From NCBI GenBank assembly GCA_049317085.1, contig JBMOIY010000019.1:2161-26160 (forward strand): a DNA stretch of 24,000 bases, given 5' to 3'. Shown here piece after piece: positions 3,058 to 23,997 of the stretch. The notes under the pieces are model-generated. The model had not been told where the DNA came from. It saw only the letters and a program-made list of their open reading frames with translations, and ran no database searches. The stretch's first letter is position 1; every line of letters begins with the position of its first letter. The stretch is from Rickettsiales bacterium (GTDB taxonomy: Bacteria > Pseudomonadota > Alphaproteobacteria > Rickettsiales > UBA3002). Position numbers and translations under genes: made by a program.

Positions 3058-3070
3058 AGTTTTTCTCCCG

Positions 3071-4768: not shown

Positions 4769-4778
4769 GAGTAAAACC

Positions 4779-5003: not shown

Positions 5004-5006
5004 CCA

Positions 5007-5231
5007 ATGACCGCCATCCATTGCCCCATATGCCAAGCGCCTTTCAAAGAAGTAGCGAGAGAAGGTGTTTTGATCGACGTATGTACCCAATGTAGAGGAG
5101 TATGGCTTGACAACGGCGAGCTTGAAAAATTAATGGATATAGCGCGCGAAGAGATAAATAAACCCAGAAAGATTGGCCGCAGATCGGATTCCGGGAGATC
5201 GCGCATTGAAAGCTGGCTGGAGCCGTTATAA
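5007..5231 (+). CDS. TFIIB-type zinc-ribbon protein (zf-TFIIB, PF13453-like), 74 aa
   Basis: SD AAGGA plus 7 nt. CPICQAPF...(15 residues)...CTQCRGVWLDNGELEKLM is the CxxC...CxxCxGxWhD.gEL.kl signature of this family. Basic C-terminal tail. Confidence 0.75.
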   Translation: MTAIHCPICQAPFKEVAREGVLIDVCTQCRGVWLDNGELEKLMDIAREEINKPRKIGRRSDSGRSRIESWLEPL

Positions 5232-5292
5232 TTTTCATGCAACGCGACATCGCAATCGTCGCCTGCTAATCCTCTAGAGTTGGAATTTTCGA

Positions 5293-6273: not shown

Positions 6274-6286
6274 GAAGGAGACAAAT

Positions 6287-6712: not shown

Positions 6713-6743
6713 TTCTATCGCTAATTTAACCAAGGAGAAACTT

Positions 6744-8806: not shown

Positions 8807-8807
8807 T

Positions 8808-9575: not shown

Positions 9576-9640
9576 AAAATGAGCAGTAATTATAGATAGT
9601 GTACTGATGCCATTTTCTGCTTCAGCGGGGGTGCTATCCA

Positions 9641-9949
9641 TCAATTCACCGTATTACCAAGGGCGAAGCAAACATTGAGGAAGGCATTGCTCTTGAACGC
9701 GATGATGCACGCGCACGCGATCACTTCCGCGAGCATGCGGTTGAAATTGAATATAGCCCCGCGGATTTTTGGAGCACTGGACTGGAATTCGTAGCCGAGC
9801 GAGAATCTGGTGAAACGGCGCCGATTCTTGAAACTATCCTCATTGCTTTTGGCAAGGTAGCTATCTGGGAACCCGCCACGTAGCCACATGCTTTTTATGG
9901 CCTTTTCATTGTTACCGATTTCCAAAACATTCAGCGGGCCGAGATCAAC
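9641..9949 (-). pseudogene. Truncated, decayed fragment of a DUF4143-type AAA ATPase gene
   Basis: The open frame VDLGPLNVLEIGNNEKAIKSMWLRGGFPDSYLAKSNEDSFKNRRRF... carries the L.PL...E.......WLRGGFP.S.LA hallmark of the central part of these roughly 400-aa ATPases. A TAG lies immediately upstream, so there is no AAA domain. The downstream part retains only faint similarity (..F..MLA....TV.) and stops early. Confidence 0.5.
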
Positions 9950-9981
9950 CTAGTATGGGTAGATTTTAGCGAAATGAATGC

Positions 9982-10102
9982 ATGCACAATCCACCGATAA
10001 GCATGTATGTTCAGGGCAAAAAATGCACAGGAAAGTCATTTTAGTGCACACAACTTACGATTTGATGCACAAATTTGACATTTTAATGCACGACCAAAAT
10101 GG
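9982..10102 (+). repeat. Five same-strand (A/G)TGCAC motifs; the last four are exactly 21 bp apart (DnaA-box-like or iteron-like array)
   Basis: ATGCAC at 9982, ATGCAC at 10023, GTGCAC at 10044, ATGCAC at 10065, ATGCAC at 10086. The 21-nt units are aaaaATGCACaggaaagtcat / tttaGTGCACacaacttacga / tttgATGCACaaatttgacat / tttaATGCACgaccaaaatgg. TGATGCACA matches the DnaA box TTATNCACA at 8 of 9 positions; the others match at 7 of 9. Confidence 0.6.
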
Positions 10103-10362
10103 CTCGCCGAAACGGTCAATCATGCATATTGATTAATATTAATGGGTTAATAGCGGGTCTTTCCCAGCAACCTTCTATACGGGGACGCCAGGCCCGCCAT
10201 TTAGCTAGATTCAGGATTTTTAAAAGCATTTCGTTTCATTTTTTATTTAACAACAAATTGATATTAAATGGAACTTCTGTTTTTTTTGGCGAAAAACGTT
10301 TCGTTTTCACTTCGTTCGGTATCTAAAACAGCAATCATCTGCCGGTTTCGTCTCACTTCAGG

Positions 10363-10518
10363 TTATGCCCGCGCAATCGCTGGCCACCCAAAATAGTTAT
10401 CGATATAGATTTTGCGCTGCTCAGGAAATTCGATGACAGCTGCTCTTTGCTCCGGTAAAGTTCGAAACGCGTCGATGACGGCGCGCCATTGACTCGAGTC
10501 CTTAAACGTCACATGCAT
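10363..10518 (-). CDS. Hypothetical small protein (51 aa if it starts at MHVTF...); possibly a gene remnant
   Basis: The track ORF 10363..10659 would overlap the divergent neighbour's start. The shorter form MHVTFKDSSQWRAVIDAFRTLPEQRAAVIEFPEQRKIYIDNYFGWPAIARA has GC-rich-half composition. The SD is weak and I recognise no family. Confidence 0.3.
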   Translation of the reverse strand: MHVTFKDSSQWRAVIDAFRTLPEQRAAVIEFPEQRKIYIDNYFGWPAIARA

Positions 10519-10642
10519 CGCTTGGGCGCGCTCGGTACACAACATCAGCCAGAATCTCAACCGTCCCCACCCCAATTCCCATTTCAAACTTGCTATTATA
10601 TACCCATCGCTTAATTTCCAACCATTAGCGATGGAGATACCA

Positions 10643-11239
10643 ATGAAGGCACAACACAACTCCAGGACGACCGATTTGGGTACTACACTCTATGACGGGT
10701 CCACCGGCTTTCAAGTCCGCAAGCGCAACGGCATCGGAATGTTTTTTCATGTCTTTGCCTTATGCTGCATGGTGCTGATGGGTGCCTCGTTGCTTGTCTA
10801 CTATCGCTCGCCTGAAGGTTGCGCCTTTGCAGTCGCCATCGGCCTCAGCTTCGCACTGATTGCACAGAACCTCGAGAAACAGAAAAAAAGCCGCGAATCG
10901 CTGGAATTCATGAACGCGCTGTTATCCTCGGCACTTGGCGCAGGCCACCGCTTCTGCTGCATCGTGAAGAATACCGGCGACATCATGTTCTATAACCGCC
11001 CGTTCCAGGAAGTCTTCCCGGAATACATCACCCAAGGCACCCACACGCTGGATGCATTATTCACTCTTTATAATGTGCCCCAAGCCGACCATAACGCCAT
11101 CACAGGCCTGATGGCCCCGAATCGCAGCGGCACAATCAACACCAGCATCCGCGCCGAAGGTTCCAACACACAGACCATCAGCATTATCCTCGAACCCATC
11201 GAGCGGCCGACCGGGTACTTCCTGCTGCGCGGCAAATAG
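10643..11239 (+). CDS. Membrane-anchored protein with a C-terminal PAS-like fold and no output domain
   Basis: ATG 10643 follows GGAGA plus 5 nt. Two hydrophobic helices (MFFHVFALCCMVLMGASLLVYY, AFAVAIGLSFALIAQ) precede ...FMNALLSSALGAGHRFCCIVKNTGDIMFYNRPFQEVFPEY...ISIILEPIERPTGYFLLRG, which reads like a PAS core. This is a by-eye call. Confidence 0.45.
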   Translation: MKAQHNSRTTDLGTTLYDGSTGFQVRKRNGIGMFFHVFALCCMVLMGASLLVYYRSPEGCAFAVAIGLSFALIAQNLEKQKKSRESLEFMNALLSSALGAGHRFCCIVKNTGDIMFYNRPFQEVFPEYITQGTHTLDALFTLYNVPQADHNAITGLMAPNRSGTINTSIRAEGSNTQTISIILEPIERPTGYFLLRGK

Positions 11240-11281
11240 CGCGTTGCATCAGGGCCTCGGCTGCTCTACACCCCGTCCCCT

Positions 11282-13144
11282 ATGGCTGGACGCGTCCTTT
11301 TAGCACTCGAAGATATTTTCCTCACGGTTGGCAACCGGCTGCTGTTCGCGGGGGTGAACCTGCATATCAATGAGGGCGACAAGATATGTTTGGTGGGCCG
11401 CAATGGCGCTGGCAAGACCACCCTCATGCGTTTGATCATGCAGGAACTGGAGACCGATTCGGGCAAACGCTTCCTTCTGCCCGGCACCCGCATCGGATAC
11501 CTCGCCCAACAGGTCGATTTCAACCCCAAACAACGTGTCCGCGATTTCGTGATGCACGGCTTTCCGAAGGATAAACGCACCGACGAGGTCGCCCACCGCG
11601 CTGATATGGTCACCACCCCGCTCGGCCTCGACGCGGATGCACCCATGGGCCATTTGAGCGGCGGCCAGCTACGCCGCGCCGCGCTCGCACAAGCCCTCGT
11701 CGATGAGCCCGATATTTTGTTACTGGATGAGCCGACGAACCATCTCGACCTCGAAGCCACCCTCTGGCTCGAGCAATTCCTCGCCCGCACGAGAAGCGCC
11801 ATCATATGCGTGTCGCACGACAGAGCCTTCCTGAACGCGTTCACCCATAGGGTTTTCTGGATCGACCACGGCACGGTGCGCAACTGTCCGGTGGGTTATG
11901 CGGATTTCGATGATTGGGCCGAGCAGATTCTAGAGCAGGAAGCCCGCACCCTCGCCAATATGCAGAAGAAGTTGGAACAGGAGCTGGACTGGACCCAAGG
12001 CGGCGTCACCGCCCGACGAAAACGCAACATGCGGCGGATGAACGAACTCCACCGCCTGCGCGACAAACTGAAAAAAGATAAGGCCGCCTATAACGCAAAG
12101 ATTCAAGCCATCGATATCGACCCGCTGCAGCCTACGCCTGCTTCAAAGATCGTCGCGGAGTTCAAAGGCGTCAGTAAAACCTTCGAGCGTGACGGCAAGA
12201 AAATCAAGATCCTCGATAACTTCTCCCGCCGCATCCTCAAGGGCGATCGCATCGGTATACTCGGTCGCAATGGCTCTGGCAAATCGACCTTACTCAAAAT
12301 GCTCATCGGTGAGCTGGAGCCGGATTCCGGACTTGTTTTTCGTTCCAAGAAAATTGACCTCGCCTATTTCGACCAACACCGCAGCGCGCTAGAGCCGAGC
12401 CAGACGTTATGGCGCACCCTCGCCCCAAACAGCGATTACGTCTATATCGGCAGCGGCGCAGAGCGTCGGCACAAACATGTCGCGGCTTACCTCAAGGATT
12501 TCCTGTTCGACCCCAAACGCGCGAAGGACGAGGTCGGCACCCTGAGTGGTGGCATGCAGAACCGACTGATGCTCGCCCGCACCCTCATCAACCCCGGCAA
12601 TTTGATGATCCTCGATGAGCCGACCAACGACCTCGACATGGACACGCTCGACATGCTGCAGGAAATTCTCGCCAGCTACCAGGGCACGCTCATCATCGTC
12701 AGTCATGACCGCGACTTTCTTGACCGCACGGTGACCGAAGTGCTGGCCTTCGAGGGCGACGCCCAGATCGACTCCTACATCGGCGGCTACAGTGATTACC
12801 TTGAAGCCAAGGAAGAAAAACTGCGCCTGAACAGCAAGAGAAAAAACGCCGCGACCAAGGCCGCCATCGCCCAAGTTGAAGCGGCAGCGCCTGCCGTTGA
12901 AATACTCAAGCCAGCTAGTAGCCTAAGCTTCACCGAACTCCACGAACTGAAAAAACTCCCCGCCACCATCGCCGCGCTGGAACAGGAACTGATACCGTTA
13001 AAGAAAACCCTGGAAGACGCAGAACTCTACACCCGCGACCCACAACTTTTCGACCGCACCCTGCGCTACCTTACCCGTACGCAGAAGAAGCTGGAGGATG
13101 CAGAGAGCAGGTGGCTTGAGCTGGAAAGCAAAACGGCGGGCTAG
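11282..13144 (+). CDS. uup: ABC-F family ATPase, Uup-like (two ABC domains plus a C-terminal coiled-coil domain)
   Basis: 620 aa. Walker A GRNGAGKTT and GRNGSGKST; signatures LSGGQLRRAALA and LSGGMQNRLMLA; Walker B ILLLDEPTNHLD and LMILDEPTNDLD. No TM segments. The C-terminal tail ...LEQELIPLKKTLEDAELYTRDPQLF....L.....KLEDAESRWLELE matches the Uup C-terminal domain. Confidence 0.85.
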   Translation: MAGRVLLALEDIFLTVGNRLLFAGVNLHINEGDKICLVGRNGAGKTTLMRLIMQELETDSGKRFLLPGTRIGYLAQQVDFNPKQRVRDFVMHGFPKDKRTDEVAHRADMVTTPLGLDADAPMGHLSGGQLRRAALAQALVDEPDILLLDEPTNHLDLEATLWLEQFLARTRSAIICVSHDRAFLNAFTHRVFWIDHGTVRNCPVGYADFDDWAEQILEQEARTLANMQKKLEQELDWTQGGVTARRKRNMRRMNELHRLRDKLKKDKAAYNAKIQAIDIDPLQPTPASKIVAEFKGVSKTFERDGKKIKILDNFSRRILKGDRIGILGRNGSGKSTLLKMLIGELEPDSGLVFRSKKIDLAYFDQHRSALEPSQTLWRTLAPNSDYVYIGSGAERRHKHVAAYLKDFLFDPKRAKDEVGTLSGGMQNRLMLARTLINPGNLMILDEPTNDLDMDTLDMLQEILASYQGTLIIVSHDRDFLDRTVTEVLAFEGDAQIDSYIGGYSDYLEAKEEKLRLNSKRKNAATKAAIAQVEAAAPAVEILKPASSLSFTELHELKKLPATIAALEQELIPLKKTLEDAELYTRDPQLFDRTLRYLTRTQKKLEDAESRWLELESKTAG

Positions 13145-13204: not shown

Positions 13205-13876
13205 TTAATAGGTCGGGGTACGATTCTGTTGCTTACGCGCATCCACACAATCCGGCGAACTATACTTTTCTGCCTCTGGCGTGCCGGTTTTGGGCTCTGT
13301 GTAGCAGACATTGGCATCTTTGAGAGCTTGGGCAGCCTTATCCGCTGCACTACTTGCTGCCGATCCAACAGCTGAACCAGCGGCTTTCGCTTTATTCCAA
13401 AGTGAACCAAATCCGCTCTCTTCTTGCGCTGCTGGAGTCGGCGCTGCAGCAGGTGCCGCCGCCGCGGGTGCAGCTGGCGCTTGAGAACCCGGTGTCGGTG
13501 CCTGTGGTGCTGGCGCCTGCTGCGGAGCCACACCCGTGCGCTGATCCAAAATCTTCAGTCCTTCCTCATTAATACGAAGGAAATGCGGGCGAACAGTATC
13601 GTTCAAGAACGCCTTACCGCGCAATTCCGGGTCATTGTCGAAAAACTCTTTGGCCTTTTGCATCTCACCTAAGCGCAGTGAACCATTGGGCTGGTTCTTA
13701 AGCGCACCAATCTTGATAAGCTGGAGTTCAATTTTAGCAATTTCAGGGGTACGCTTGCCCGACTCGATGGTAACAGCATTCGTAGCTTTGTCCGCACCAA
13801 AGCGAAGCACGTCGCCTAGTACACCAGCTTGCGCCAATAGTTCAGGTTTTAGTTCGGGTGTTTTGTTGTCAGCCAT
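13205..13876 (-). CDS. Hypothetical protein with a central Pro/Ala/Gln-rich linker (223 aa)
   Basis: ATG 13876 (MADNKTPELK...) follows AGGAGA plus 5 nt. Linker APQQAPAPQAPTPGSQAPAAPAAAAPAAAPTPAAQ. No signal peptide seen and no family recognised. Confidence 0.55.
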   Translation of the reverse strand: MADNKTPELKPELLAQAGVLGDVLRFGADKATNAVTIESGKRTPEIAKIELQLIKIGALKNQPNGSLRLGEMQKAKEFFDNDPELRGKAFLNDTVRPHFLRINEEGLKILDQRTGVAPQQAPAPQAPTPGSQAPAAPAAAAPAAAPTPAAQEESGFGSLWNKAKAAGSAVGSAASSAADKAAQALKDANVCYTEPKTGTPEAEKYSSPDCVDARKQQNRTPTY

Positions 13877-14031
13877 TCTCATCTCCTACAGTTGATTTTT
13901 CACGATTCACTACAGGTTCAGTATACTTAATAAAACCTTAAGAGTGCATGACAGTTTGAAGACAATAGGCTCGATCCACGCCGAAAATCATAGCGCGAGA
14001 AATAACTAAAAAAATAATTTAAATCAAGCGA

Positions 14032-14787
14032 TTATTCCCCAGACATCGTGGCCGGAATATCCCAGCTCAGATGGACATTGGCCGCCTTGTGCTTACTGTT
14101 GATGGTGAAATCCTGATGCTTCTTCATCTCACCCAGCGTGGCATCGAGGGCATACGACCCATCCACCAGCTTTACATAGAGCAGAGGCCCTGCCACCACG
14201 TTCAGCATCTCCTCGACATCCTTGCCGTTCTTGCGAGTGATGACCACCCGCGCATCGCCCACGAACGCCCCGGCTTTACTTGCGCTCATCACATACAGGT
14301 TATAATCCGGCTTCGCCGCCTGAATCGCCGCCTGCTCATCATCGCCGATGCCACCGGTAACATACGTCACCTCCGGGCTGCTATGGGCCTCATTCTTAGT
14401 CTCAATCAGCGGAATATCCTGTGGTTTAGCTTTCGCCAGCGGAGCAACAGGTTTCACCACCGGGGCTGGTGTAGCAGTAGGAGCCACAACGACCGGAGTC
14501 GGTGTAGCGACGGGAGCTGCATCTGGCTTCACCACCACAATGCGCGGCATTTCCACATCATTCGCCGCCGGAGGAATCACTTCAACAGTACCGCTGTCCG
14601 GTACAGGTGCTGAAGAGGCCTGCGCCATCACCATATCATCCGCGTTATGGTCTACCTCGCCCGTATCTACCCAAACTTCTTCCACCACCTTCTCATCCAG
14701 TTGGAATGTCGTGATAGGCCTGGCAGAAGCAGGCAACGCACCCGCGCCAGCAAAAGTGATGACCGCAGCAGTGACCAGACGTTTCAT
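14032..14787 (-). CDS. Secreted protein (251 aa): signal peptide, Pro/Thr/Val/Ala-rich linker, and a conserved C-terminal beta-rich domain
   Basis: Internal start MKRLVTAAVITFAGAGALPASA|RP has a Sec signal with an ASA cleavage motif. Linker PDAAPVATPTPVVVAPTATPAPVVKPVAPLAKAKP. The C-terminal block YVTGGIGDDEQAAIQAAKPDYNLYVMSASK.GAFVGDARVVI...GKDV......GPLLYVKL.DGSY resembles a widespread proteobacterial domain of unknown function (carboxypeptidase-regulatory-like), as I recall it. Confidence 0.6.
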   Translation of the reverse strand: MKRLVTAAVITFAGAGALPASARPITTFQLDEKVVEEVWVDTGEVDHNADDMVMAQASSAPVPDSGTVEVIPPAANDVEMPRIVVVKPDAAPVATPTPVVVAPTATPAPVVKPVAPLAKAKPQDIPLIETKNEAHSSPEVTYVTGGIGDDEQAAIQAAKPDYNLYVMSASKAGAFVGDARVVITRKNGKDVEEMLNVVAGPLLYVKLVDGSYALDATLGEMKKHQDFTINSKHKAANVHLSWDIPATMSGE

Positions 14788-14881
14788 AGCAAACTCCCTG
14801 AAAGGATAGGTAACATTAGCTACCACTATGCACCCGCGCCATGACCGCAGCAAGCAGCATCGACACAGCATCCACCACGAG

Positions 14882-16801
14882 TTAACGGCGGTAGCCTTCA
14901 AGATTCTGGTCAATGATATCCTTCACCAATTGCACCAATTTCGGCCCATACGGTGCGCCGTCCCACATTAAATGGTTATTCTTAAGGATTTGCTCGCTGA
15001 GCCCGCGCTTGTATTCGGCATCGTTGGCCAGCTTAACCGCCATCTCAGCGTATTCATTCAAATTCTTGGCTTCGGGTGCATCCGCGATACCCATGAGGGA
15101 ATAATAGGAATGTACAACCCGGCCACGCGCATACTCCCCCGGCATGGTTACAATCGGCAGCCCGAAGCCAAATGCATACTGCGCGGTGGTGCCGCCCCCG
15201 AAATAGATGGTATCGAGAATTGCATCAGACGCTTTGAGGACGCTAAGCAGGATTTCAAGCGGCTGCCAGCCGAAGAAGATGATTCGTGACTCATCACATT
15301 TCGCAAAGATACGTTTTTGAAGGATGTCGCTGGCGGCTTGCTGGCTGAAATCATTGAACAGCAGCAGCACCGCCTTTGGATCCTTCGAGAGGATATTACT
15401 CAGCACCCCATCGAAATCCGGGTGGAATTTCTGGATGGCCATCGGGCAGACATAGATGTTCTTGTCGTCCGGCAGGGTCATCTCCTCCCGCGTCAGCCAG
15501 CGCTTTGGCGCTTGTGGACGGGTGAACACGGTATCGATGCCTGCCGTGCATAACAGCCGCTCGGTATAATTCTCATCCGCCTGCGGCGGCTCGTAGGAGC
15601 GCGAAGAAATGACGTAATCAATCGTGTCGATACCGGTCGTCTCGGGATGCCCCTGGAAACAAGCCTGATGAGGTGCCAGCCGTGCCATGGCCAGCAGATG
15701 AGTCATCGGGTCCATCCCGATATCGGGATAGATAATGAGATCGAGCCTCTCATTTGCAATCATAGTCTGTGCTGCCGACACGTTATTCGGCAGTGAATGG
15801 ATTGGGATGGCCGCCGCATGGATGGTCTGTATTTTCTCATCCACGATATTGCCGATGCTGAACAGCATTACTGAAAATTCCGGCTGCGATGCCAGATGGA
15901 TCATCGCCCCGCGATAGCAATTCCCGACCGAATGGTTATGCATATAGCGCGACACGAACCCGATACGGATCTTTTCATCCGGCTGGCGCACAGGCTTCAC
16001 TTTGCAATGCGCCGCCGTGAAATTGATGGCCGGCTTACCGACAATGCGCAACATTTGCGCATAAAGTTTCACTAGCTCCTTGTTGTCGCGGTTATGGAAC
16101 GCGAGGCTGAAGACAGGATTGTTGCTCAGCAATGCTTCCTGACTGACCTGGGGCTTTTCAGCGATAAAGCGTTCTAGCGACGCCTTGAAATTTGCCCGCC
16201 CAGCATCGATCTCTTCCGAAGACAGATTGATACGCGGCAAATGGGTTTCATATTGAATCCGGAAACTCGCTGGCACCCGGAATTTGGATGTCAATGTACG
16301 ATAGGCAGCATCTGCTTCCGCGAACCGGTTATTAAGCTTGAGCGAAAGACAGTAAAATTTCTCCAGATCCATTGCATTCGGGAACCGCGGCAGGATATCT
16401 TCTAGATACGACGGCACCAGATGCGCCTGATTGAAGCGAATGAGCATGCCCATCAACGCCGCGTGGGCATCAGGATTTTCCGGCAGCACCTGCGTGGCCC
16501 GATGCGCTAGGCGCACCGCTTCCGTGCCATTGTTCTGGGCTTCGAGCAATTGGCAGAACAGTAGGTAAGTATCGATATTGTTCGGATCGATCTGCAGAGC
16601 GCGCTGATAATTATCCGCTGCCAGCATGTAATTTCCCGCGCTATGTGCGATGAACCCAAGCTTATGTAGCGCCTCAGCATGGTTTGGGTTCATCTGCAAC
16701 ACCTGCTGCAGCACATCCACCGCTTCCTGCACACGGTTCTTCGCCAGCGCGCTTTCGGCGATCTTCATCATTTTGCGAACGGGGGGGACAACCTGATTCA
16801 T
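14882..16801 (-). CDS. TPR-repeat + GT41-family glycosyltransferase (O-GlcNAc-transferase/SPINDLY-like; the architecture of Caulobacter FlmG)
   Basis: 639 aa. N-terminal TPRs (AEALHKLGFIAHSAGNYMLAADNYQRALQIDPNN...). The C-terminal blocks LDLIIYPDIGMDPMTHLLAMARLAPHQACFQGHPETTGIDTIDYVISS and LDTIYFGGGTTAQYAFGFGLPIVTMPGEYARGRVVHSYYSLMGI...AKNLNEYAEMAVKLANDAEY track the human OGT catalytic-domain blocks (LDT....G.TT....G.P.VTMPGE...RV..S.....AKN..EY...AVKL..D.EY) as I recall them. ATGA overlap with the upstream aminotransferase gene. Confidence 0.85.
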   Translation of the reverse strand: MNQVVPPVRKMMKIAESALAKNRVQEAVDVLQQVLQMNPNHAEALHKLGFIAHSAGNYMLAADNYQRALQIDPNNIDTYLLFCQLLEAQNNGTEAVRLAHRATQVLPENPDAHAALMGMLIRFNQAHLVPSYLEDILPRFPNAMDLEKFYCLSLKLNNRFAEADAAYRTLTSKFRVPASFRIQYETHLPRINLSSEEIDAGRANFKASLERFIAEKPQVSQEALLSNNPVFSLAFHNRDNKELVKLYAQMLRIVGKPAINFTAAHCKVKPVRQPDEKIRIGFVSRYMHNHSVGNCYRGAMIHLASQPEFSVMLFSIGNIVDEKIQTIHAAAIPIHSLPNNVSAAQTMIANERLDLIIYPDIGMDPMTHLLAMARLAPHQACFQGHPETTGIDTIDYVISSRSYEPPQADENYTERLLCTAGIDTVFTRPQAPKRWLTREEMTLPDDKNIYVCPMAIQKFHPDFDGVLSNILSKDPKAVLLLFNDFSQQAASDILQKRIFAKCDESRIIFFGWQPLEILLSVLKASDAILDTIYFGGGTTAQYAFGFGLPIVTMPGEYARGRVVHSYYSLMGIADAPEAKNLNEYAEMAVKLANDAEYKRGLSEQILKNNHLMWDGAPYGPKLVQLVKDIIDQNLEGYRR

Positions 16802-17964
16802 GCATTCTCCAAATTCGTCAATACTTCATCGAGCGACGCCGCAACCATGAGCAAATGCTTAGGCGGAATATCAACATAAAACGGCAGCGACACGATGGAT
16901 TCGCCCAACTGCTTGGTGACCGACAGATCTCCCCGCGGATAATTTGCGTAGGCCGGTTGCGTGTGGCAGCCCTTGTCCCACCATTGCCGCGCCTTGATGC
17001 CGCGCACCTGCAATTGCGAGATCACCCGATCCGCCATCGTTGTAGGCAGGCGAATATTACAGGTCGTCGTCACCGCATCGTCCGGGAACCACAGCAGCAG
17101 GTTATGTTTTTCTGTAACCGGAGCTAATGAGCGCTTATAGGTCTCGGTGATCTCCAGCCACTGTGCCCGCCGGTTCGGCCAGATATCGAGCGCTGCCAGC
17201 CCCACCGCACAGCCATATTCGCTGATTTTCGAGTTGATGCCAGGAATCGAGATGCGCCGCGTGTAATAGCCGAAATTGGTCTGCTCCTGCACATGCCGAA
17301 TCAGACCCGTATCGCGCGAGATGACCACCGCCCCCTCGCCGATACCGAGCACCTTGGTCGCATGCATGCTAAACACGACTGCCGTTCTGCCGAACTTCAC
17401 ATTGCGAAAGCTATCGAACCCTGATGCGGCATCGACAACCACCGGAATAGAGGTATCCGCCGTGAATTTATCCCATGCCTGGATATCGATTGGTTTGCCG
17501 AACGGCGCCGCCACCAGCACCGCGCCGATGACCCCGTTGATTTTGGTGATCTGCTTCTTCACCGCCTCCGGATCCAGTGCCCATGTCGCATCGTCACAAT
17601 CGATGAAATACGGGGTCATCTCCGCTGCGATAGCCGAAGCGGGTGTTGCAACAAACGTCCATGACGGAACAAGGCAATAGCTATCTTTAGGCAGATTCAA
17701 TGCCCTGAGTGTAGCGATCAGGCCCGAAGTAGCACTGGATGCAGTCACCGCACATTCCGTGGTGACCCCAAAATGCTCCGCCAACCGCCCACGGAATTCC
17801 TGCTCCAACGGGCCGAAATTCGTATACCAGCGCGCCGCATCGATACGTTTCAGGTACGGCAAAATATCCGCCGTCTCCGGCAGCATTGGCTTCAGCAGCT
17901 CGACCGTCTCGAACAGCTCTGGCACTGTGTTTTCGGCTGGTTTTGTCATCGCCTGCACCTGCAT
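16798..17964 (-). CDS. DegT/DnrJ/EryC1/StrS-family PLP-dependent sugar aminotransferase
   Basis: N-terminal ...ILPYLKRIDAARWYTNFGPLEQEFRGRLAEHFG and the PLP-lysine block VVFSMHATKVLGIGEGAVVIS are family signatures. The ATG at 17964 follows GAGGGA plus 4 nt; the track start, TTG 17976, sits inside that SD. Confidence 0.85.
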   Translation of the reverse strand: MQVQAMTKPAENTVPELFETVELLKPMLPETADILPYLKRIDAARWYTNFGPLEQEFRGRLAEHFGVTTECAVTASSATSGLIATLRALNLPKDSYCLVPSWTFVATPASAIAAEMTPYFIDCDDATWALDPEAVKKQITKINGVIGAVLVAAPFGKPIDIQAWDKFTADTSIPVVVDAASGFDSFRNVKFGRTAVVFSMHATKVLGIGEGAVVISRDTGLIRHVQEQTNFGYYTRRISIPGINSKISEYGCAVGLAALDIWPNRRAQWLEITETYKRSLAPVTEKHNLLLWFPDDAVTTTCNIRLPTTMADRVISQLQVRGIKARQWWDKGCHTQPAYANYPRGDLSVTKQLGESIVSLPFYVDIPPKHLLMVAASLDEVLTNLENA

Positions 17965-18036
17965 GATTTCCCTCAACTAACTCGACAATGTACGGTTAGG
18001 CAAGGGTTAAGCAAGGCTTGTGCCAATAGGAGGCAC

Positions 18037-18846
18037 TTATTTCCAGTAATCCACGAATTTCTCGGCAAAAATATACTGGTACATCGAGTCTCGGTTCATC
18101 GCATTCGCTTTCTCGATAATGGGCCGAATGATCGAAGCTGGCTGCTTGGACCACAGCCACAGCCGCGACGCCACGTTATACACCGAGCACTGGTAACCGT
18201 TCTGCTCGAACAGCAACTGCATCGACCGGTTAGTGAAGAACGAACAATGCACCGACAGCAGATAGAACCAATCCGGGTTCTGTGGCACATGTTCGGCCAC
18301 CAGCGTATGCAGGATCATCACCCCTTCATCACTCACAAGATCAAAGATGCCATCGAGCTGCGAACGGAACCGCAAATGCTCCATCACCGCGGTATGCGTG
18401 ACCAGGCTGAAGGCCTTCGGCTTCAACTCCCCCGCCTGCAAATACCCTTGCGCCGGGTTGCTGCTATGTTCGTATTTTTCGACCTTGAGCCCGTGGTCTA
18501 CCGCGAGCGCATTGACTAATTTGCCATCCCCCGCACCATAATCCAGCCAGCGGCCTTTGGGCAACAAACCTAAGTTCGCGCAATCACCAATAATCGCCGA
18601 CTGCGCCACGAACCGCTCCAGCCAGCGCGGATCTTCGGGGTTATCGTCCGTCCCCTGATAGAGCGACACCCACTGGTTATTCAACGTCTCCCACTCAGCA
18701 TCCGTCATCTCGTAATGCGTGCGCGAGAACACAAAACCACAGCCGTCGCACTTATCATAATACACGTCGCCGAGGTTGAATTGCTCGAAATGCTTCTGCA
18801 TGAACGGCTGCGTCGCACTGGCGCAGATAATGCATGGGATTGACAA
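18037..18846 (-). CDS. Class I SAM-dependent methyltransferase with an N-terminal CxxC...CxxC zinc ribbon
   Basis: 269 aa. Motif I is WLDYGAGDGKL. The N-terminus CIIC...(26 residues)...CDGCGFVF resembles the zinc-binding N-domain of NDP-sugar C-methyltransferases (Methyltransf_13-like). The TTG start at 18846 has GGAG plus 6 nt and is needed to include the first CxxC. Confidence 0.75.
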   Translation of the reverse strand: MSIPCIICASATQPFMQKHFEQFNLGDVYYDKCDGCGFVFSRTHYEMTDAEWETLNNQWVSLYQGTDDNPEDPRWLERFVAQSAIIGDCANLGLLPKGRWLDYGAGDGKLVNALAVDHGLKVEKYEHSSNPAQGYLQAGELKPKAFSLVTHTAVMEHLRFRSQLDGIFDLVSDEGVMILHTLVAEHVPQNPDWFYLLSVHCSFFTNRSMQLLFEQNGYQCSVYNVASRLWLWSKQPASIIRPIIEKANAMNRDSMYQYIFAEKFVDYWK

Positions 18847-18919
18847 AACAAACTCCGATTCTTACGGTTTTACCATTCGCGATACGCTAGCATGGCATCC
18901 ATAGAAAGGCCAGCACCTG

Positions 18920-20662
18920 ATGAAGTTCACCGCCCTCGAATTGCTCGAGACCTATGTATCGAGCGCCGAAACACACAGCGTTGCGCTAGGCGACTATGCG
19001 CCCGGGATCCATTGCACCAACCACGCTTTCTTCAAGAAAGAAGCAGACGGCTCTATTCCCTGGGTAGTGAGCCGCTCCTGCGACCATGCGGGCGGCAAAT
19101 TGCGCTTCTGCGATGGCGACAGCAGCAAAGCCATCTGCCCGTTACATAACTGGGAGTTCGATTTTAATAACCTCAGCTACACAAAAATCCCTAACCAGAC
19201 ATTTGAACATATCACCAAGAACTCATTGCCCTTCTCGGTCAAAGGCAATACCCTCACCTACGAAACCGAGCAGTTGAACCTGCGCGTCCCATCGTCTATC
19301 CCTCAGCCTAAAACCCCGATTGAAGTCGAGCTGCGCTTTATCACCCACGCTTCGGTAATGCTGGAACTGAACGGGCTGAAACTGCTGACTGACCCGTGGT
19401 ATGTCGGCGAATGCCTTGCTGGTGGCTGGTGGCTGAAGCAGCCCCCCAAAGCCGACGCGTGGGAATTGCTGAAAAGCGCAGACCTGCTCTACATCTCTCA
19501 CAACCACCCTGACCACTTGCACACCGAAACCCTCGCCCATGCCCACCGCGACATCCCCATCATCGTCCCGAAATTCGATACAGATTCCGTGACCACCCCC
19601 CTACGTGACCTCGGTTTCACCAACATTCACGAACTCGAACTCAAACGGCTCTACCGCGTCAACAACAGCGAACTGCTCATCAGCATCCTACCGACAGGCG
19701 ACCACCGAGACGATAGCGGCCTGTTCGTCGTACAAGGCGATTTCTCAGCCGTACTCACCGTCGATTGCGTCGGCACCAATCAATACGTGCTGCCGCAGGA
19801 TATAAGCATCCTTCTCACCAACTTCGCCTCCGGCGCCTCTGGCTGGCCGCTTTGCTACGAAGTCGTGGGTTCGCTCGACGAACGCGCGAAGATCGTCACC
19901 AAGAACCGCGGCAACGCCGTACTCGAGGTCATGAAATATATCGCCGCTACCAAACCGCGCGTTTATATGCCCTATGCCGGGTTCTTCGACGAACGCGCCC
20001 CCCGCGACCACACAATCAAAACCTATAACGTAAAAAATTCCTCCGCGAGCATTGTCGAAAAAGTCACCGCGAAATTCCCGATGGTGCAGGCTATCGACCC
20101 ACTACTCCATGACCGCATCCACTGGAAAAACGGCGAAGCGATGGTGAGCAACATCGACCAGCCACCGCTATTCACCTATGACGCGACTACCATCACCCAC
20201 TATCTCGATGCCCAGCGCAAGATGCTCAAGAAATTCGACATCGAAAAAATCGCTGAATATTTCAGCCAGTCCGAATTCAAGGACGACCTCATCGTCTACC
20301 TTGCGCTGACCGATGACGATTACACCCCAACCGGCCCCAGCTTGCGCATCGATTTCTCGACTACACCGATCACCCATAAAGTCATCGACGGCCCTACACT
20401 GCTCGCGCAATTCAACGCCCTCACCGAACTGAATGGCAAGCACCACCTCCTCATCAAAGCCCGCACCGACAGCCTCTGGCGCCTCGTCCATGAAGGCCGC
20501 CCGCTCGAGGAACTCACGTTGGGCTTCCAATGCCGCATCGACCGCAAGCCCGACCAGTACAGTGCCGCCTTCTGGCAGCATTACACCACCCACGGCGCCC
20601 CCATGCTGAAACGCGGTGAAGACAGGCTGCTCTATAAACTGCTCGAAGGCAGCGATGGCTGA
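18920..20662 (+). CDS. Rieske [2Fe-2S] + metallo-beta-lactamase-fold oxygenase, CMP-N-acetylneuraminate hydroxylase (CMAH)-like
   Basis: 580 aa. Rieske motif C54-D-H-(16 residues)-C73-P-L-H76 at 19079-19147. MBL motif H-N-H-P-D-H at 19499-19516. Many blocks shared with vertebrate CMAH as I recall it are listed in the first finding. Divergent from the methyltransferase operon across a 73-bp gap. Confidence 0.8.
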   Translation: MKFTALELLETYVSSAETHSVALGDYAPGIHCTNHAFFKKEADGSIPWVVSRSCDHAGGKLRFCDGDSSKAICPLHNWEFDFNNLSYTKIPNQTFEHITKNSLPFSVKGNTLTYETEQLNLRVPSSIPQPKTPIEVELRFITHASVMLELNGLKLLTDPWYVGECLAGGWWLKQPPKADAWELLKSADLLYISHNHPDHLHTETLAHAHRDIPIIVPKFDTDSVTTPLRDLGFTNIHELELKRLYRVNNSELLISILPTGDHRDDSGLFVVQGDFSAVLTVDCVGTNQYVLPQDISILLTNFASGASGWPLCYEVVGSLDERAKIVTKNRGNAVLEVMKYIAATKPRVYMPYAGFFDERAPRDHTIKTYNVKNSSASIVEKVTAKFPMVQAIDPLLHDRIHWKNGEAMVSNIDQPPLFTYDATTITHYLDAQRKMLKKFDIEKIAEYFSQSEFKDDLIVYLALTDDDYTPTGPSLRIDFSTTPITHKVIDGPTLLAQFNALTELNGKHHLLIKARTDSLWRLVHEGRPLEELTLGFQCRIDRKPDQYSAAFWQHYTTHGAPMLKRGEDRLLYKLLEGSDG

Positions 20663-20814: not shown

Positions 20815-21177
20815 TCAGACTGCACCGGGTTGAATCAGTACCCCAGCGGGAATACCAAGTCCGGCATGCAGCTTGCGAATCATCGGTAACGTCAATTCAC
20901 GTCGATGATTAAGCACCTCTGATACGCGCGCACGACTGCCAATGTAGGGCTCCATATCACGGCGCGAAAGGCCCTGCTGATCCATCGTAAATAAAATCGC
21001 CTCTACGGGATCTGGCGCTTGGATGGTATGATGTTTTTCTTCCCACGCAACAACCAGCGTCGAGAGTATATCCAAACGGTCACCTTGTGGCGAATTCGGG
21101 GCCGCATTCATCAATCCATCAATTTCTTGAAGGGCGCGTTTGTAGTCCTGTGCGGTTTTAATTGGTCGAATGTCCAT
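20815..21177 (-). CDS. higA: HigA-family antitoxin (XRE-type HTH)
   Basis: 120 aa. ...IKTAQDYKRALQEIDGLM......GDRLDILSTLVVAWEEKH..I...DPVEAILFTMDQQGLSRRDMEPYIGSRARVSEVLNHRRELTLPMIRKL is the typical HigA pattern. It lies 2 nt downstream of the higB stop. Confidence 0.85.
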   Translation of the reverse strand: MDIRPIKTAQDYKRALQEIDGLMNAAPNSPQGDRLDILSTLVVAWEEKHHTIQAPDPVEAILFTMDQQGLSRRDMEPYIGSRARVSEVLNHRRELTLPMIRKLHAGLGIPAGVLIQPGAV

Positions 21178-21179: not shown

Positions 21180-21479
21180 CTATATCTCCGTTACTTCGAT
21201 TGCGTCATAGTGCCGGTGTGTGCCGATAAAGCGGATATAGAGTACCCCGTAGGGGTAATTTATCTTGGCCACCAACCGATACTTATTACCTGCAATGTTA
21301 AACACCACACGGTTATCGCCGACGATACTTGCGCTACCTAAGGCCTTCTTTACTTCTGACGGCTTTGCCCAGTCAGCTTCCTCTGCTAATTTGAACCATG
21401 CCTTCAAAGGCTGTTCCGCATCGGCATAAGCAGGCTTTTCCCAAAAGTCGCGCAGTGTCTTACGGGCGATAATCCTCAT
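21180..21479 (-). CDS. higB: HigB-family type II toxin (mRNA interferase)
   Basis: 99 aa. MRIIARKTLRDFWEKPAYADAEQPLKAWFKLAEEADWAKPSEVKKALGSASIVGDNRVVFNIAGNKYRLVAKINYPYGVLYIRFIGTHRHYD matches the HigB_toxin (PF09907-like) pattern. The toxin-first gene order is typical of higBA. Confidence 0.85.
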   Translation of the reverse strand: MRIIARKTLRDFWEKPAYADAEQPLKAWFKLAEEADWAKPSEVKKALGSASIVGDNRVVFNIAGNKYRLVAKINYPYGVLYIRFIGTHRHYDAIEVTEI

Positions 21480-21838: not shown

Positions 21839-21914
21839 TGGTGGCCAGAGACGGGATCGAACCGCCGACACGGGGATTTTCAATCCCCTGCTCTACCAGC
21901 TGAGCTATCTGGCC
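21839..21914 (-). tRNA. tRNA-Phe (anticodon GAA), CCA encoded
   Basis: Reverse complement: GGCCAGATAGCTCAGCTGGTAGAGCAGGGGATTGAAAATCCCCGTGTCGGCGGTTCGATCCCGTCTCTGGCCACCA. Acceptor stem GGCCAGA/TCTGGCC, D-arm GCTCAGCTGGTAGAGC, anticodon stem GGGGA/TCCCC with loop TTGAAAA, and T-arm GGCGGTTCGATCCCGTC. 76 nt, close to E. coli tRNA-Phe. Confidence 0.95.
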
Positions 21915-22030: not shown

Positions 22031-22225
22031 TTACTGGTCTTCGGGCGAGCCATTCAACAGCGCTTCGGCGGCGGCTAAGCTCTCATCGTCCACATCGTCG
22101 AGTTCCACCGCTGGCACGGCGTAGGAGCCGGTGAACCATTTGTTGAGGTCGACCTGCCGGCAGCGCTCGGAGCAGAAGGGCTTATGCTCGGGCTTGGTGG
22201 GCTTGAAACAGACCGGACACGTCAT
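22031..22225 (-). CDS. yacG: DNA gyrase inhibitor YacG (zinc-ribbon protein)
   Basis: 64 aa. MTCPVCFKPTKPEHKPFCSERCRQVDLNKWF..SY.VP is the CPxC...FCSxRCxxxDLxxW YacG signature. ATGA overlap with the upstream trhO-like gene. Confidence 0.85.
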   Translation of the reverse strand: MTCPVCFKPTKPEHKPFCSERCRQVDLNKWFTGSYAVPAVELDDVDDESLAAAEALLNGSPEDQ

Positions 22226-22956
22226 CTCGCAGCCTCCAGCATCGGCAACAATGCATGGCCGACGGCTACCCGCTCATCGAACACGAAGCAACTGCCCCGC
22301 CACAGCGAATCAGCGGTCGGAACCTGCTCCAGATACGCAAGGATGCCGCCATGCAAATGATGCACGTCCTTGAAGCCAAGCGCGACGAGGTACGACGAAT
22401 ATTTCTCACAGCGAATCCCGCCCGTACAATACATCGCGACACTGGTGTTGGCGCTGACGCTGAGGTTCTGCGCCGTCCATGCCACCATCTGCTTGAAGTT
22501 GCGCGTCGCCGGGTTCACCGCGCCCTCGAAATGCCCCATCACGTATTCATAATCGTTGCGCGTATCGATGGTGATGACATCCGCCCGGGTGATGAGCGCG
22601 TTCCAGTCCTTCGGCGCCACATAACTGCCCACGCATTGCGCCGGGAAGGTGGGCACGCCCATCGAGATCAGCTCGCGCTTCACTTTCACCTTGCTACGCT
22701 TGAACGGCTGCGCGCCGAAATAACTTTCGCGGAAGGTCGGCGTGGTAAAGGCGATGCGCGATTGCAGGAACGCCATCAAGGATTCAATTGCATCGGTCGC
22801 GCCCGAGATGGTCGCGTTGATGCCCTCACTGGCTAGCGTGATCGTGCCGCGAATACCGAGCGCCTGCATGCGTTCCAATATCGGGGCGCGCAACGCTTTC
22901 GGGTCAGCAAGGCCGACGAAGCTATAGAAGGTGGAAATGGTCAGAGGCGCGCTCAT
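22222..22956 (-). CDS. trhO: Rhodanese-domain protein of the UPF0176/YceA family (tRNA uridine(34) hydroxylase TrhO)
   Basis: 244 aa. ...TFYSFV.L.....LRAPILERMQALGIRGTITLASEGINATISG... then IDTRNDYEY..GHFEGAVNP......F and the active-site loop MYCTGGIRCEK. Confidence 0.8.
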   Translation of the reverse strand: MSAPLTISTFYSFVGLADPKALRAPILERMQALGIRGTITLASEGINATISGATDAIESLMAFLQSRIAFTTPTFRESYFGAQPFKRSKVKVKRELISMGVPTFPAQCVGSYVAPKDWNALITRADVITIDTRNDYEYVMGHFEGAVNPATRNFKQMVAWTAQNLSVSANTSVAMYCTGGIRCEKYSSYLVALGFKDVHHLHGGILAYLEQVPTADSLWRGSCFVFDERVAVGHALLPMLEAAR

Positions 22957-22989
22957 GGCGCGGGTCGTAGCAAAAATCGTTGGGAATGT

Positions 22990-23997
22990 CTAGAGCGTGG
23001 CGTGCGCAGCCACTTCCGGCACCACACGAGAGACTTGTGTGGCCGCATGGATCTGCTGGCCCGGCGCTGGCACTTCCGGCGAAACGGGCGCTGCCGCAGC
23101 AACCGGGCTGGCGGGAGGCATGTTCGCCGCCATCTGCCTCAACCGCTCGATGCGTGTCTCGGTCGAGGGGTAACCGGACTGGATTTTGCGGTACAGTTTG
23201 TACAAGCTAGGACGTCCGCGGCCCTCCTCCAGCTTGCCGAGAGCCAAAATCAAGCCCTCCGGGTCACCCGAGATCATGGCGCCTTTGCGGTCAGCGTCCA
23301 GTTCCGTCGGCCGCACGCTCACCTGGTTCGCCGCAATCAACCCGAGGCTACCACCCACCAACATATAGATCACGGAATCCAGCGGCGAGAGATGTTTCCC
23401 CCCCTTACCCGTGATGAATTGCAATACCTTCTTGAGACGACCCGTCTCCATTTTATCATAAGGAATATAAGCGCCGATACCGCCGCGATGCGCCATGCGA
23501 TCTGCCGCGATCACCGCACCACCACCGAGCAATCCAATCGCCAAGGCCCGCGATTTCGTATGATTGCTTACTTCATGCCCAAGCTCATGCCCCAGCACCG
23601 CCCGCACCTCACGCAGATCGAGGCGCTTGAGCAGCCCGGTCGTCAGCACGACCGCATTCTCATGGGTCAGCGACGCCGCATTCATCATCGGGCTTTCCGC
23701 AAGAATCAGCTGCGGCACGCGCGTGTGGCCTGCCCGCTGGCAGAGCGTCCGCCATTCCTGATGCAGTTCCGGATGCGTCTGCGCGGTGATTTCCTTACCG
23801 CGTTTCATACCCATCTTGCCAAGCTCGCTCAGCAGATGCATATCGAGGTCGCCATTGCCCATCGGCACCCGCGGAATGAAGCGTGGGTCGATATTCGGGC
23901 TGCTGGCAAGCCCATAATCCCCTGAAAAATCCCGGTGACCGAACATGCCACTCAGTTTTTCCCACGCCGAGGACACAGCATCCTGCACCGCGCTCAT
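22990..23997 (-). CDS. M48-family zinc metallopeptidase (HtpX-like)
   Basis: 335 aa. HELGHEVSNH (HExxH) is followed by two hydrophobic segments (LAIGLLGGGAVIAA, VIYMLVGGSLGLIAA) and ...ELDADRKGA. The first ATG is only 3 nt from the right edge with no upstream stop visible, so the true start may lie outside the window. Confidence 0.7.
   Translation of the reverse strand: MSAVQDAVSSAWEKLSGMFGHRDFSGDYGLASSPNIDPRFIPRVPMGNGDLDMHLLSELGKMGMKRGKEITAQTHPELHQEWRTLCQRAGHTRVPQLILAESPMMNAASLTHENAVVLTTGLLKRLDLREVRAVLGHELGHEVSNHTKSRALAIGLLGGGAVIAADRMAHRGGIGAYIPYDKMETGRLKKVLQFITGKGGKHLSPLDSVIYMLVGGSLGLIAANQVSVRPTELDADRKGAMISGDPEGLILALGKLEEGRGRPSLYKLYRKIQSGYPSTETRIERLRQMAANMPPASPVAAAAPVSPEVPAPGQQIHAATQVSRVVPEVAAHATL

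Follow-up and report, generated by a model that had tools for sequence, protein, structure and literature searches.

N-glycolyl sugars are rare, and biosynthetic enzymes are known only for two of them, N-glycolylneuraminic acid (Neu5Gc; animal CMAH, EC 1.14.18.2) and N-glycolylmuramic acid (NamH). Here we report the analysis of a CMAH-family gene at 18920..20662 (plus strand) in a stretch of 24,000 nucleotides, called the window below, from contig JBMOIY010000019.1 of a Rickettsiales bacterium (assembly GCA_049317085.1, contig positions 2,161 to 26,160). Among the described relatives, NamH (Rv3818, Mycobacteriales) consists of a UlaG-type metallo-beta-lactamase (MBL) domain and a Rieske domain (PMC10050696), and hydroxylates the N-acetyl group of uridine diphosphate (UDP)-N-acetylmuramic acid to N-glycolyl, a function that has been shown genetically (PMC6481270, PMC10050696). 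A review from the Varki group regards CMAH as a distant homologue of the prokaryotic UDP-N-glycolylmuramic acid genes (NamH; Raymond et al. 2005), and states that all known microbes are unable to synthesise Neu5Gc (PMC6481270). CMAH homologues have been reported from two green algae as well as from 60 prokaryotes of many phyla (Peri et al. 2018, PMC5767959, following Simakov et al. 2015), and a tentative N-glycolyl legionaminic acid, with no gene assigned, has been described in Tannerella forsythia UB4 (PMC5378307). In addition, many relatives of the window protein are labelled 'CMP-N-acetylneuraminate monooxygenase' by JGI, and NCBI uses this label for one metagenome-assembled genome (MAG) of Parasphingorhabdus.

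An earlier reading, made from the letters of the window only (the sequence-only reading), had presented the gene as a bacterial homologue of what is known as a deuterostome enzyme. Since prokaryotic homologues are both published and labelled in databases, the occurrence of CMAH-type genes in bacteria is already known, the window gene is no unexpected deuterostome-specific enzyme in bacteria, and the novelty claim was overstated. The same reading held that no bacterial homologue had been characterised functionally. This stands for the CMAH-type enzymes, among which we found no assayed bacterial member, and does not hold for NamH, a domain-permuted relative that is genetically characterised.

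A full-length CMAH homologue

The gene encodes 580 aa from an ATG start, as supported by the open reading frame (ORF) listing, Pfam, BLASTP and alignment, and its limits, its N-terminal Rieske motif (CxH-16-CxxH) and its HNHPDH motif are all as first described. The product is identical to the NCBI protein 'MAG: MBL fold metallo-hydrolase [Rickettsiales bacterium]' (P0001), on a 26-kb contig. Both expected Pfam types, Rieske (PF00355) and an MBL-fold domain, are matched. The Rieske [2Fe-2S] domain covers residues 38-93 (19031..19198, plus strand; 22.2 bits against a cut-off of 20.3) and holds the motif SCDHAGGKLRFCDGDSSKAICPLHNWEFD, that is C54-x-H56, 16 residues and C73-x-x-H76, with the codons for the ligands C54, H56, C73 and H76 in nt 19079-19147. 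The MBL-fold catalytic core follows at residues ~137-365 (19328..20014, plus strand), as located by two Pfam families, invariant columns and PDB matches. Lactamase_B_3 (PF13483) matches residues 137-212 with E 9.6e-9, and Lactamase_B_2 (PF12706) likewise matches from residue 137. HNHPDH lies here at residues 194-199 (H194, H196, D198 and H199; nt 19499-19516), together with the invariant H143, D158, D265, D282 and D363 and the near-invariant E358. The CMAH-type C-terminal domain (residues ~380-560; 20057..20599, plus strand) is covered by no Pfam model, and is delimited by its collinear alignment with the same part of vertebrate CMAH. The block LGFQCRIDRKPDxY..FW.HY is conserved in it, and R515, G535, R542, P544, F551 and W552 are invariant.

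The homology to vertebrate CMAH extends over nearly the whole protein. A mouse CMAH sequence was used as a lead only, and the conclusions rest on database sequences retrieved with it. As such a lead, it aligns with the window protein at 29% identity over 537 columns (E 2e-49). The mouse query is 96% identical to the CMAH of Apodemus sylvaticus, and every named match of it is a vertebrate 'cytidine monophosphate-N-acetylneuraminic acid hydroxylase'. By BLASTP against 120 source-named vertebrate CMAHs, among them P0182 (Rana), P0137 (Sarcophilus) and P0136 (Sorex), the window protein shows 27-30% identity over 530-570 columns with E 2e-54 to 1e-48, the alignments running from residues 38-54 to residues 555-579. 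A full-length match with E of about 1e-50 to authentic CMAHs clearly exceeds what generic Rieske and MBL motifs would give, as the sequence-only reading had anticipated. Its other grounds for the assignment are also borne out: the length (580 against 577-590 aa) and the order of Rieske, MBL and C-terminal domain are those of vertebrate CMAH, and the motif blocks it listed (ITHA...DPW...GWWL...ADL.YISH.H.DHL, DIPI.V, TVDC, FA.GASG.P, PR.Y.PYAGFF.E and LGFQ.R..R.PD.Y...FW.HY) all align.

Conservation of single residues agrees with this. Our family alignment comprises 86 sequences (74 bacterial and 11 vertebrate) and has 35 invariant columns, including the four Rieske ligands, H143, D158, H194, H196, D198, H199, D265, D282, D363, R515 and R542. 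The window protein keeps every family-invariant residue, and authentic CMAH gives the same Pfam pattern at the same positions. In domain order, approximate length, Pfam pattern and the Rieske and HxHxDH ligands the two are thus alike, and the alignments confirm the window protein, at the sequence level, as a full-length collinear CMAH homologue.

Oxygenase, hydrolase or NamH-type enzyme

The name given by NCBI to the identical protein would suit a hydrolytic MBL-fold enzyme, and so would the Pfam MBL families and a weak NCBIfam match to a metal-dependent hydrolase model. That match is the sole one in the NCBIfam scan, where no specific model was found, and at 18.2 bits it is far below its cut-off of 144. 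The Rieske ligands, however, are invariant across the family, the homology to the CMAH oxygenase is full-length, and the best structural matches are MBL-fold oxygenases and not hydrolases. Because the Rieske domain is invariant, redox chemistry is favoured over the hydrolase family, and we rejected membership in the MBL-fold metallo-hydrolases. We also ruled out a ring-hydroxylating oxygenase alpha subunit: the catalytic part has an MBL fold, Pfam gives no match to PF00848 (Ring_hydroxyl_A) in the 580-aa protein, and PDB matches to biphenyl dioxygenase are confined to the Rieske region (E 0.04-1.4).

A related explanation is a NamH-type hydroxylase of UDP-N-acetylmuramic acid that modifies peptidoglycan. 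A tblastn search of plasmid records gave MBL-core matches in Nocardia, Rhodococcus and Tsukamurella. The one on the 69-kb plasmid pPE-7 of Nocardia sp. PE-7 (L093:3001-4551) is a 517-aa NamH-family protein with Pfam SCP2_Rv3818 (PF25451, E 3.8e-48), and similar plasmid-borne copies are present in Rhodococcus ruber and Tsukamurella. With this protein the window protein shares 24% identity in the MBL core (235 residues, E 2e-15), and a Rieske match (E 0.002) at the opposite end. The NamH-family order is MBL from residue 2, SCP2-like domain at 332-451 and Rieske at 467-508, in a protein of ~517 aa that lacks the CMAH-type C-terminal domain; the window protein has the Rieske domain first, gives no Pfam match to PF25451, and resembles NamH domain by domain only. 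As far as the sequences go, this shows a circular-permutation-like rearrangement of NamH relative to CMAH, and the window protein is by its predicted architecture CMAH-type, not NamH-type. Taken together, we regard a hydrolase or a NamH-type enzyme as highly improbable.

Predicted structure and mechanism

CMAH itself has no structure in the PDB. The AlphaFold (AF2) model of the window protein is of high quality (predicted local distance difference test score, pLDDT, 92.7; predicted template modelling score, pTM, 0.90). Its nearest solved folds are FrsH and CmlA (E ~1e-11 to 1e-10 over 315-343 columns), followed by UlaG, NAPE-PLD and generic MBL hydrolases. By sequence, CmlA, a diiron MBL-fold beta-hydroxylase, is again the best match in the PDB (E 1.3e-6). 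In the HMMER alignment HNHPDH falls on HNHQDH of CmlA, and the loop TGDHRDD (residues 259-265) falls on the loop GEHGD, in which the CmlA ligand E377 lies. The likeness to CmlA and FrsH thus comprises an MBL fold for O2 activation, HxHxDH and an acidic loop residue aligned with E377. Unlike the window protein, CmlA and FrsH lack a Rieske domain, have a different N-terminal domain and act on amino acids tethered to carrier proteins, and the identity is 15-20% over ~320-340 columns. The window protein also differs from them in its C-terminal domain, and no non-ribosomal peptide synthetase genes lie near its gene. We therefore did not assign it to the CmlA/FrsH diiron beta-hydroxylase class, with which it matches in the MBL core only.

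From the alignment, HxHxDH together with D282, E358 and D363 would make up a metal site rich in histidines and carboxylates. In the proposed mechanism, an external reductase or ferredoxin would reduce the Rieske cluster, which would hand electrons on to non-haem iron in the MBL domain, in a centre that is CmlA/FrsH-like and probably diiron. This centre would activate O2 and hydroxylate a C-H bond that is itself unactivated. CMAH and NamH suggest, by analogy, that the most likely target is the methyl of an N-acetyl group on a nucleotide-activated sugar, giving N-glycolyl.

Place within the bacterial family

The CMAH-type family is modest in size and taxonomically wide. Among 1.84 billion representatives at 50% identity, 140 clusters reach E<=1e-30 with HMMER and 589 reach E<=1e-10, and the entire clade of the window protein is one cluster. 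The hosts include Rickettsiales-labelled and other alphaproteobacterial MAGs, Gammaproteobacteria, Bacteroidota, Pelagibacteraceae, Prochlorococcus, gastric Helicobacter species, Bradyrhizobium, Pannonibacter, Bdellovibrio, Nitrospira and Polyangia.

The window protein shows no special closeness to animal CMAH. With authentic CMAHs as queries, the window protein ranks only 85-109 of 120 bacterial homologues, and P0056, P0101, P0060 and P0108 are nearer. The tree also puts the animals elsewhere. It is a neighbour-joining (distance) tree of 79 sequences with 200 bootstraps, built from bacterial and vertebrate sequences without algal or invertebrate ones, and only its well-supported groupings are used here. 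The window protein forms a clade with L011, L012, L013 and L015 (100% bootstrap), and this clade joins L076, L016, L014 and a gammaproteobacterial clade in a supergroup at 88%. Vertebrate CMAHs group with seven homologues from Bdellovibrio, Nitrospinaceae, Nitrospira, Polyangia and others (100%). The window protein, which is bacterial and in another supergroup, is thus by these comparisons neither the closest bacterial relative nor the tree sister of the deuterostome enzyme, and does not appear orthologous to it in any simple sense.

Within its alphaproteobacterial clade the hydroxylase is 56-73% identical, and the clade differs from the rest of the family at only four conserved positions (K258P, S259T, W529L and F555Y). 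At the level of sequence, these two observations indicate purifying selection on an active enzyme. The four changes argue for retained activity and give no clear sign of an altered substrate.

Genomic context across the family

We surveyed the context of the family by tblastn, probing 79 reference-genome loci and their 10-kb flanks with genes that carry Pfam labels. Of these loci, about 30 have NeuB, a NeuC-like epimerase and/or a cytidylyltransferase for cytidine monophosphate (CMP)-nonulosonates within 10 kb, and this is strong evidence of a family-level tie to CMP-activated nonulosonic acids. P0056 (locus L006), the bacterial homologue most like animal CMAH, lies inside a complete nonulosonate operon that encodes a dehydratase, DegT, NeuB, a radical-SAM protein, a NeuC-like epimerase, the CMAH-like protein, an NTP-transferase-CBS protein, CTP_transf_3 and a PglD-like acetyltransferase. 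In the gammaproteobacterial clade, the operon of L019 contains NeuB-SAF, a NeuC above its NCBIfam cut-off, a CMP-nonulosonate cytidylyltransferase, a methyltransferase and the CMAH-like gene, as well as two BFO_1060-like putative nonulosonate transferases. The CMAH-type proteins of these operons (P0056/L006, and L017-L024 including L019) have the architecture of the window protein and 33-40% identity to it over nearly full length. They belong to the same bacterial supergroup as the window clade and are also uncharacterised, and a methyltransferase is often among the genes of their operons.

Several features of the L019 operon are of interest in their own right. The locus (L019:1119-14211, Gammaproteobacteria MAG SGMAG-20) has a CMAH-like gene 39% identical to that of the window, its NeuC is of the hydrolysing type, and it further encodes a serine palmitoyltransferase (NCBIfam 599.9 bits against a cut-off of 500), a PLD-like protein and a GT2-GtrA-PMT_2 fusion. 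By probe positions the layout is repeated in L018-L024, L035 and L043. An N-glycolyl sialic-acid-type sugar, possibly attached to a sphingolipid, seems more likely to be made de novo in such bacteria than in the window organism.

Other family members have no sugar context. Many, for example those of Flavicella and L008, stand alone without sugar genes nearby. In a Parasphingorhabdus MAG (L009:6541-9581), a CMAH-like gene with 42% identity is divergent from an unrelated methyltransferase gene, followed by a Rieske ring-hydroxylating oxygenase alpha subunit. A DmmA-like/Fer2 reductase near this gene is a candidate electron donor for Rieske proteins, and no such gene lies near the window gene. 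Since the methyltransferases of L009 and L019 are not detectably related to that of the window, we rejected the notion that a methyltransferase and a CMAH-like gene form one conserved pair across the family.

Solitary members such as these speak for a non-sugar substrate (for instance a lipid, a peptide or a small metabolite), in which case the location beside glycosylation genes would be incidental or would reflect no more than a partnership with the methyltransferase. The Parasphingorhabdus locus, with its different methyltransferase, ring-hydroxylating oxygenase and Fer2 reductase, points the same way, as do the absence of DegT and GT41 genes from L002 and the carrier-protein-bound amino acid substrates of CmlA and FrsH, the closest solved folds. 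The two characterised relatives, CMAH and NamH, on the other hand, both use nucleotide sugars, and the association with glycan genes recurs for the hydroxylase (the ~30 of 79 loci above) and, independently, for the family of its partner methyltransferase. In view of these and of the conserved neighbours described below, we consider a non-sugar substrate unlikely.

Conserved neighbours in the window clade

The window clade has a module of its own. Unlike the nonulosonate-operon homologues, which sit with NeuB, NeuC, CMP-nonulosonate cytidylyltransferase and putative nonulosonate transferases, it has a methyltransferase-DegT-TPR-GT41 module instead. A tblastn search of the clade loci (the window, L001, L003, L011-L013 and L015) found no NeuB, NeuC or CMP-synthetase gene within 10 kb.

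The first partner is a class I S-adenosylmethionine (SAM)-dependent methyltransferase of 269 aa (18037..18846, minus strand; Pfam Methyltransf_23) with an N-terminal four-Cys zinc-ribbon. By the gene coordinates, 73 bp (18847..18919) separate it from the divergent hydroxylase gene, and this intergenic region is presumed to be a shared promoter region. A sigma-70 consensus scan found nothing in 18847..18919, and promoter and terminator counts around the divergent pair were no higher than in shuffled sequence. The divergent arrangement is kept in L001, L002, L003, L011, L013 and L015. Throughout the clade the methyltransferase is always adjacent and divergent, with 63-84% identity, and it persists in L002/L012, where all other neighbours differ. 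Its cysteines C5, C8, C33 and C36 are conserved in the family alignment. NCBIfam and PDB sequence searches gave no informative match. The AF2 model (pLDDT 94.7) is more telling, as the first 17 PDB matches from Foldseek are without exception TcaB9, KijD1 or MtmC (E 8e-10 to 4e-8); the next fold follows at 2e-5. We take these three to be C-3 methyltransferases of deoxythymidine diphosphate (dTDP)-4-keto-sugars with an N-terminal four-cysteine zinc site. The partner has in common with them the zinc-ribbon and the SAM-methyltransferase fold, and differs in its length (269 against ~405 aa) and in lacking the C-terminal domain of TcaB9, with identities of 12-14%.

More distant relatives of this methyltransferase (35-50% identity) are found in glycan clusters of Nostoc, Ralstonia and Pectobacterium. 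In Ralstonia pickettii the relative is in a polysaccharide glycosyltransferase cluster, and in Pectobacterium versatile it adjoins fliA, with transketolase, LuxC/LuxE and short-chain dehydrogenase/reductase (SDR) genes. The Nostoc sphaeroides relative (CP045226.1, L091:3153-16852; 45% identical) lies in a larger cluster with KAS-III/ACP/KAS-III/SDR/hexapeptide acyltransferase genes, a Rieske oxygenase of the ring-hydroxylase type, DegT, GT2, a GT4-Methyltransf_24 fusion and a large TPR-GT41 gene. The unrelated Rieske oxygenase, standing in place of the CMAH-like gene, may represent a non-orthologous replacement.

Next to the methyltransferase lies a pyridoxal phosphate-dependent sugar aminotransferase of the DegT/DnrJ/EryC1 family (16798..17976, minus strand; PF01041, E 1.2e-57), whose listed TTG ORF probably begins a few codons too early. 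The protein is DesI-like: in the NCBIfam ranking DesI comes first, then PseC and LegC, all below their cut-offs, and its PDB matches include 3ju7 (E 2e-53) and DesI 2po3 (E 5e-29). With its counterparts in L001, L003 and L013 it shares 70-75% identity. The last gene of the module (14882..16801, minus strand; Pfam Glyco_transf_41 and TPR families) encodes a 639-aa protein glycosyltransferase with tetratricopeptide repeats (TPR) and a GT41 lobe, as in OGT, SPINDLY and HMW1C. PDB sequence matches of the catalytic lobe are to human OGT, SPINDLY, XcOGT and HMW1C-like N-glucosyltransferases, which we take to be cytoplasmic protein glycosyltransferases using UDP- or guanosine diphosphate (GDP)-sugars. 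The protein is 55-61% identical to its counterparts in L001, L003 and L013. With the Pfam and PDB labels of these neighbours, the location beside sugar-tailoring and glycosyltransferase genes, which the sequence-only reading had pointed out, is borne out.

The module varies among the relatives. A Methyltransf_24 gene, not present in the window, follows the DegT and TPR-GT41 genes in L001, L003 and L013, and the island of L001 has as extras an NTP_transferase, a second DegT and further methyltransferases. In L015, the most divergent member, a hexapeptide-repeat acyltransferase replaces DegT, and a TPR-GT41 protein (28% identical) is again there. In L002/L012 only the methyltransferase is kept, DegT and GT41 not being among the neighbours. 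Nevertheless, several genomes whose flanks otherwise differ have kept the four-gene arrangement, with 55-82% identity, and this stands against an incidental adjacency to glycosylation genes and hence against the non-sugar substrate considered above.

Substrate and role

The sequence-only reading proposed N-acyl hydroxylation of a CMP-nonulosonate or another nucleotide-activated acetamido sugar. The broader part is reasonable, since a nucleotide-activated acetamido sugar is, from CMAH, NamH and the nonulosonate operons, a well-supported substrate class for the family. The part that names a CMP-nonulosonate is less favoured: because the clade never has nonulosonate genes within 10 kb, neither CMP-Neu5Ac nor another CMP-nonulosonate is the best-supported substrate. 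Here the locus differs from animal CMAH, as its neighbours point to a sugar of the nucleoside diphosphate (NDP)-hexose type, with no CMP-sialic-acid genes within 10 kb. Judged from sequence comparison, we think it probable that the protein is an active CMAH-family monooxygenase acting on a nucleotide-activated amino or acetamido sugar for protein glycosylation, likelier an NDP-hexose derivative than a CMP-nonulosonate. The hydroxylase would work with the divergent TcaB9-like methyltransferase, the DesI-like aminotransferase (the hexapeptide acyltransferase in one relative) and the TPR-GT41 protein, and the product of the module would be an amino-deoxy sugar, hydroxylated and methylated, for cytoplasmic transfer onto a protein. 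The neighbours in the clade fit best with tailoring of an NDP-amino-deoxyhexose and then transfer to protein; the exact substrate and the hydroxylation site are what we infer from this. Further, and only tentatively, the clade could have moved from a CMP-nonulosonate to an NDP-amino-deoxyhexose pathway, and could place an N-glycolyl sugar, possibly further methylated, on proteins. We know of no characterised pathway that joins TcaB9-type, DesI-type and GT41 enzymes with a CMAH-type hydroxylase.

The principal alternative is that the enzyme is a true N-acetyl hydroxylase of a CMP-nonulosonate (CMP-Neu5Ac, or the CMP forms of legionaminic or pseudaminic acid, CMP-Leg or CMP-Pse), the CMP-sugar being made elsewhere in the genome and the TPR-GT41 protein acting like FlmG. 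FlmG of Caulobacter is a TPR and GT-B protein that transfers pseudaminic or legionaminic acid to flagellin from CMP-Pse/CMP-Leg (PMC7591256; bioRxiv 10.1101/2023.12.03.569772), and its layout resembles that of the TPR-GT41 neighbour. The GT catalytic domain of the window itself, however, matches GT41 enzymes with UDP- or GDP-sugars as donors, flagellar genes are absent from the window, and FlmG is reportedly confined to Caulobacterales (bioRxiv 10.1101/2023.12.03.569772). DegT enzymes also take part in the pathways to pseudaminic and legionaminic acid, and in NCBIfam the aminotransferase has PseC as its second match and LegC as its third; yet its nearest relatives are DesI and 3ju7, and it is just 20-24% identical to the DegTs of a real nonulosonate operon. 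A CMP-nonulosonate made elsewhere is conceivable because the clade descends from nonulosonate-linked ancestors: sister and outgroup clades lie in nonulosonate operons, with the CMP-nonulosonate synthetase gene immediately upstream, and the 88% supergroup unites the window clade with such nonulosonate-linked clades. The small number of changed family-conserved residues, four, is also in line with it. Against these stand the dTDP-ketohexose C-methyltransferase fold of the partner and the lack of NeuB, NeuC and CMP-synthetase genes within 10 kb in the clade loci. Overall, we find a CMP-nonulosonate substrate rather doubtful, the least so among the alternatives.

Several points nonetheless weigh against the NDP-amino-deoxyhexose substrate and against the proposed activity as such. 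The near-complete conservation of family residues and the nonulosonate-linked sister clades fit a CMP-nonulosonate equally. The pathway is incomplete as seen, since no 4,6-dehydratase or nucleotidyltransferase gene is in the window and an N-acetyltransferase is present in only one relative. The link to DegT and GT41 is not obligatory, because L002/L012 keep the methyltransferase only. As for the chemistry, no electron-donor gene was identified in the window, where no cytochrome b5-type partner is evident either, and the metal stoichiometry, one iron or two, is something we infer from fold similarity. Our literature search found no paper reporting the assay of a bacterial CMAH-type enzyme.

Surrounding DNA and the rest of the window

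Beyond the hydroxylase gene lie an HTH (helix-turn-helix) antitoxin gene (20815-21177, minus strand), a HigB-type toxin gene (21180-21479, minus strand; PF09907, E 3.8e-31) and, past this HigBA module, a tRNA-Phe gene (21839-21914, minus strand). In L003 a phage-type integrase flanks the same glycosylation module. These features suggested a genomic island, an idea that was not supported: no att-like direct repeat of the tRNA-Phe 3' end was found in the window, so that island status is unproven, and the GC content of the module is not distinctive.

Just downstream of the GT41 gene, 14032-14787 (minus strand) encodes a predicted secreted protein of 251 aa with the N-terminal signal-like sequence MKRLVTAAVITFAGAGALPASA and a Pro/Thr/Ala/Val-rich linker. 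From adjacency alone, it could be a local acceptor of the GT41 enzyme. The regions 14032-14913 and 13205-13882 have no Pfam or NCBIfam match and no relative in any related locus, and were for this reason excluded from the module.

The remainder, 1-13144 and 22222-23997, looks like ordinary chromosomal genes. In the former are genes for a DUF4118 histidine kinase (490-2034), ExoD (2047-2745), a Bax1-I family protein (3323-4072), TerC (5293-6273), a ferritin-like protein (6221-6712), DUF533 (6657-7490), a sodium:dicarboxylate symporter (7490-8806), a 259-aa Ion_trans channel (8796-9575) and an ABC-F ATPase (11282-13144). In the latter are those for a UPF0176/rhodanese protein (22222-22956) and an M48 peptidase (22990-23997).

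Implications

The synthesis of an N-glycolyl sialic-acid-type sugar in L019-type bacteria, if true, would bear on the view that Neu5Gc is not made by any microbe. The structure and metal centre of CMAH are still unsolved, and a soluble homologue from bacteria could serve as a tractable model for them. The four-gene module of the window is compact, and offers a way to learn what a bacterial CMAH-type enzyme hydroxylates and how far the range of the family extends beyond CMP-sialic acids. If the enzyme does act on an NDP-amino-deoxyhexose, N-glycolyl sugars would gain a third natural class besides Neu5Gc and N-glycolylmuramic acid, and the window clade would provide the first substrate switch documented within the CMAH-type architecture.

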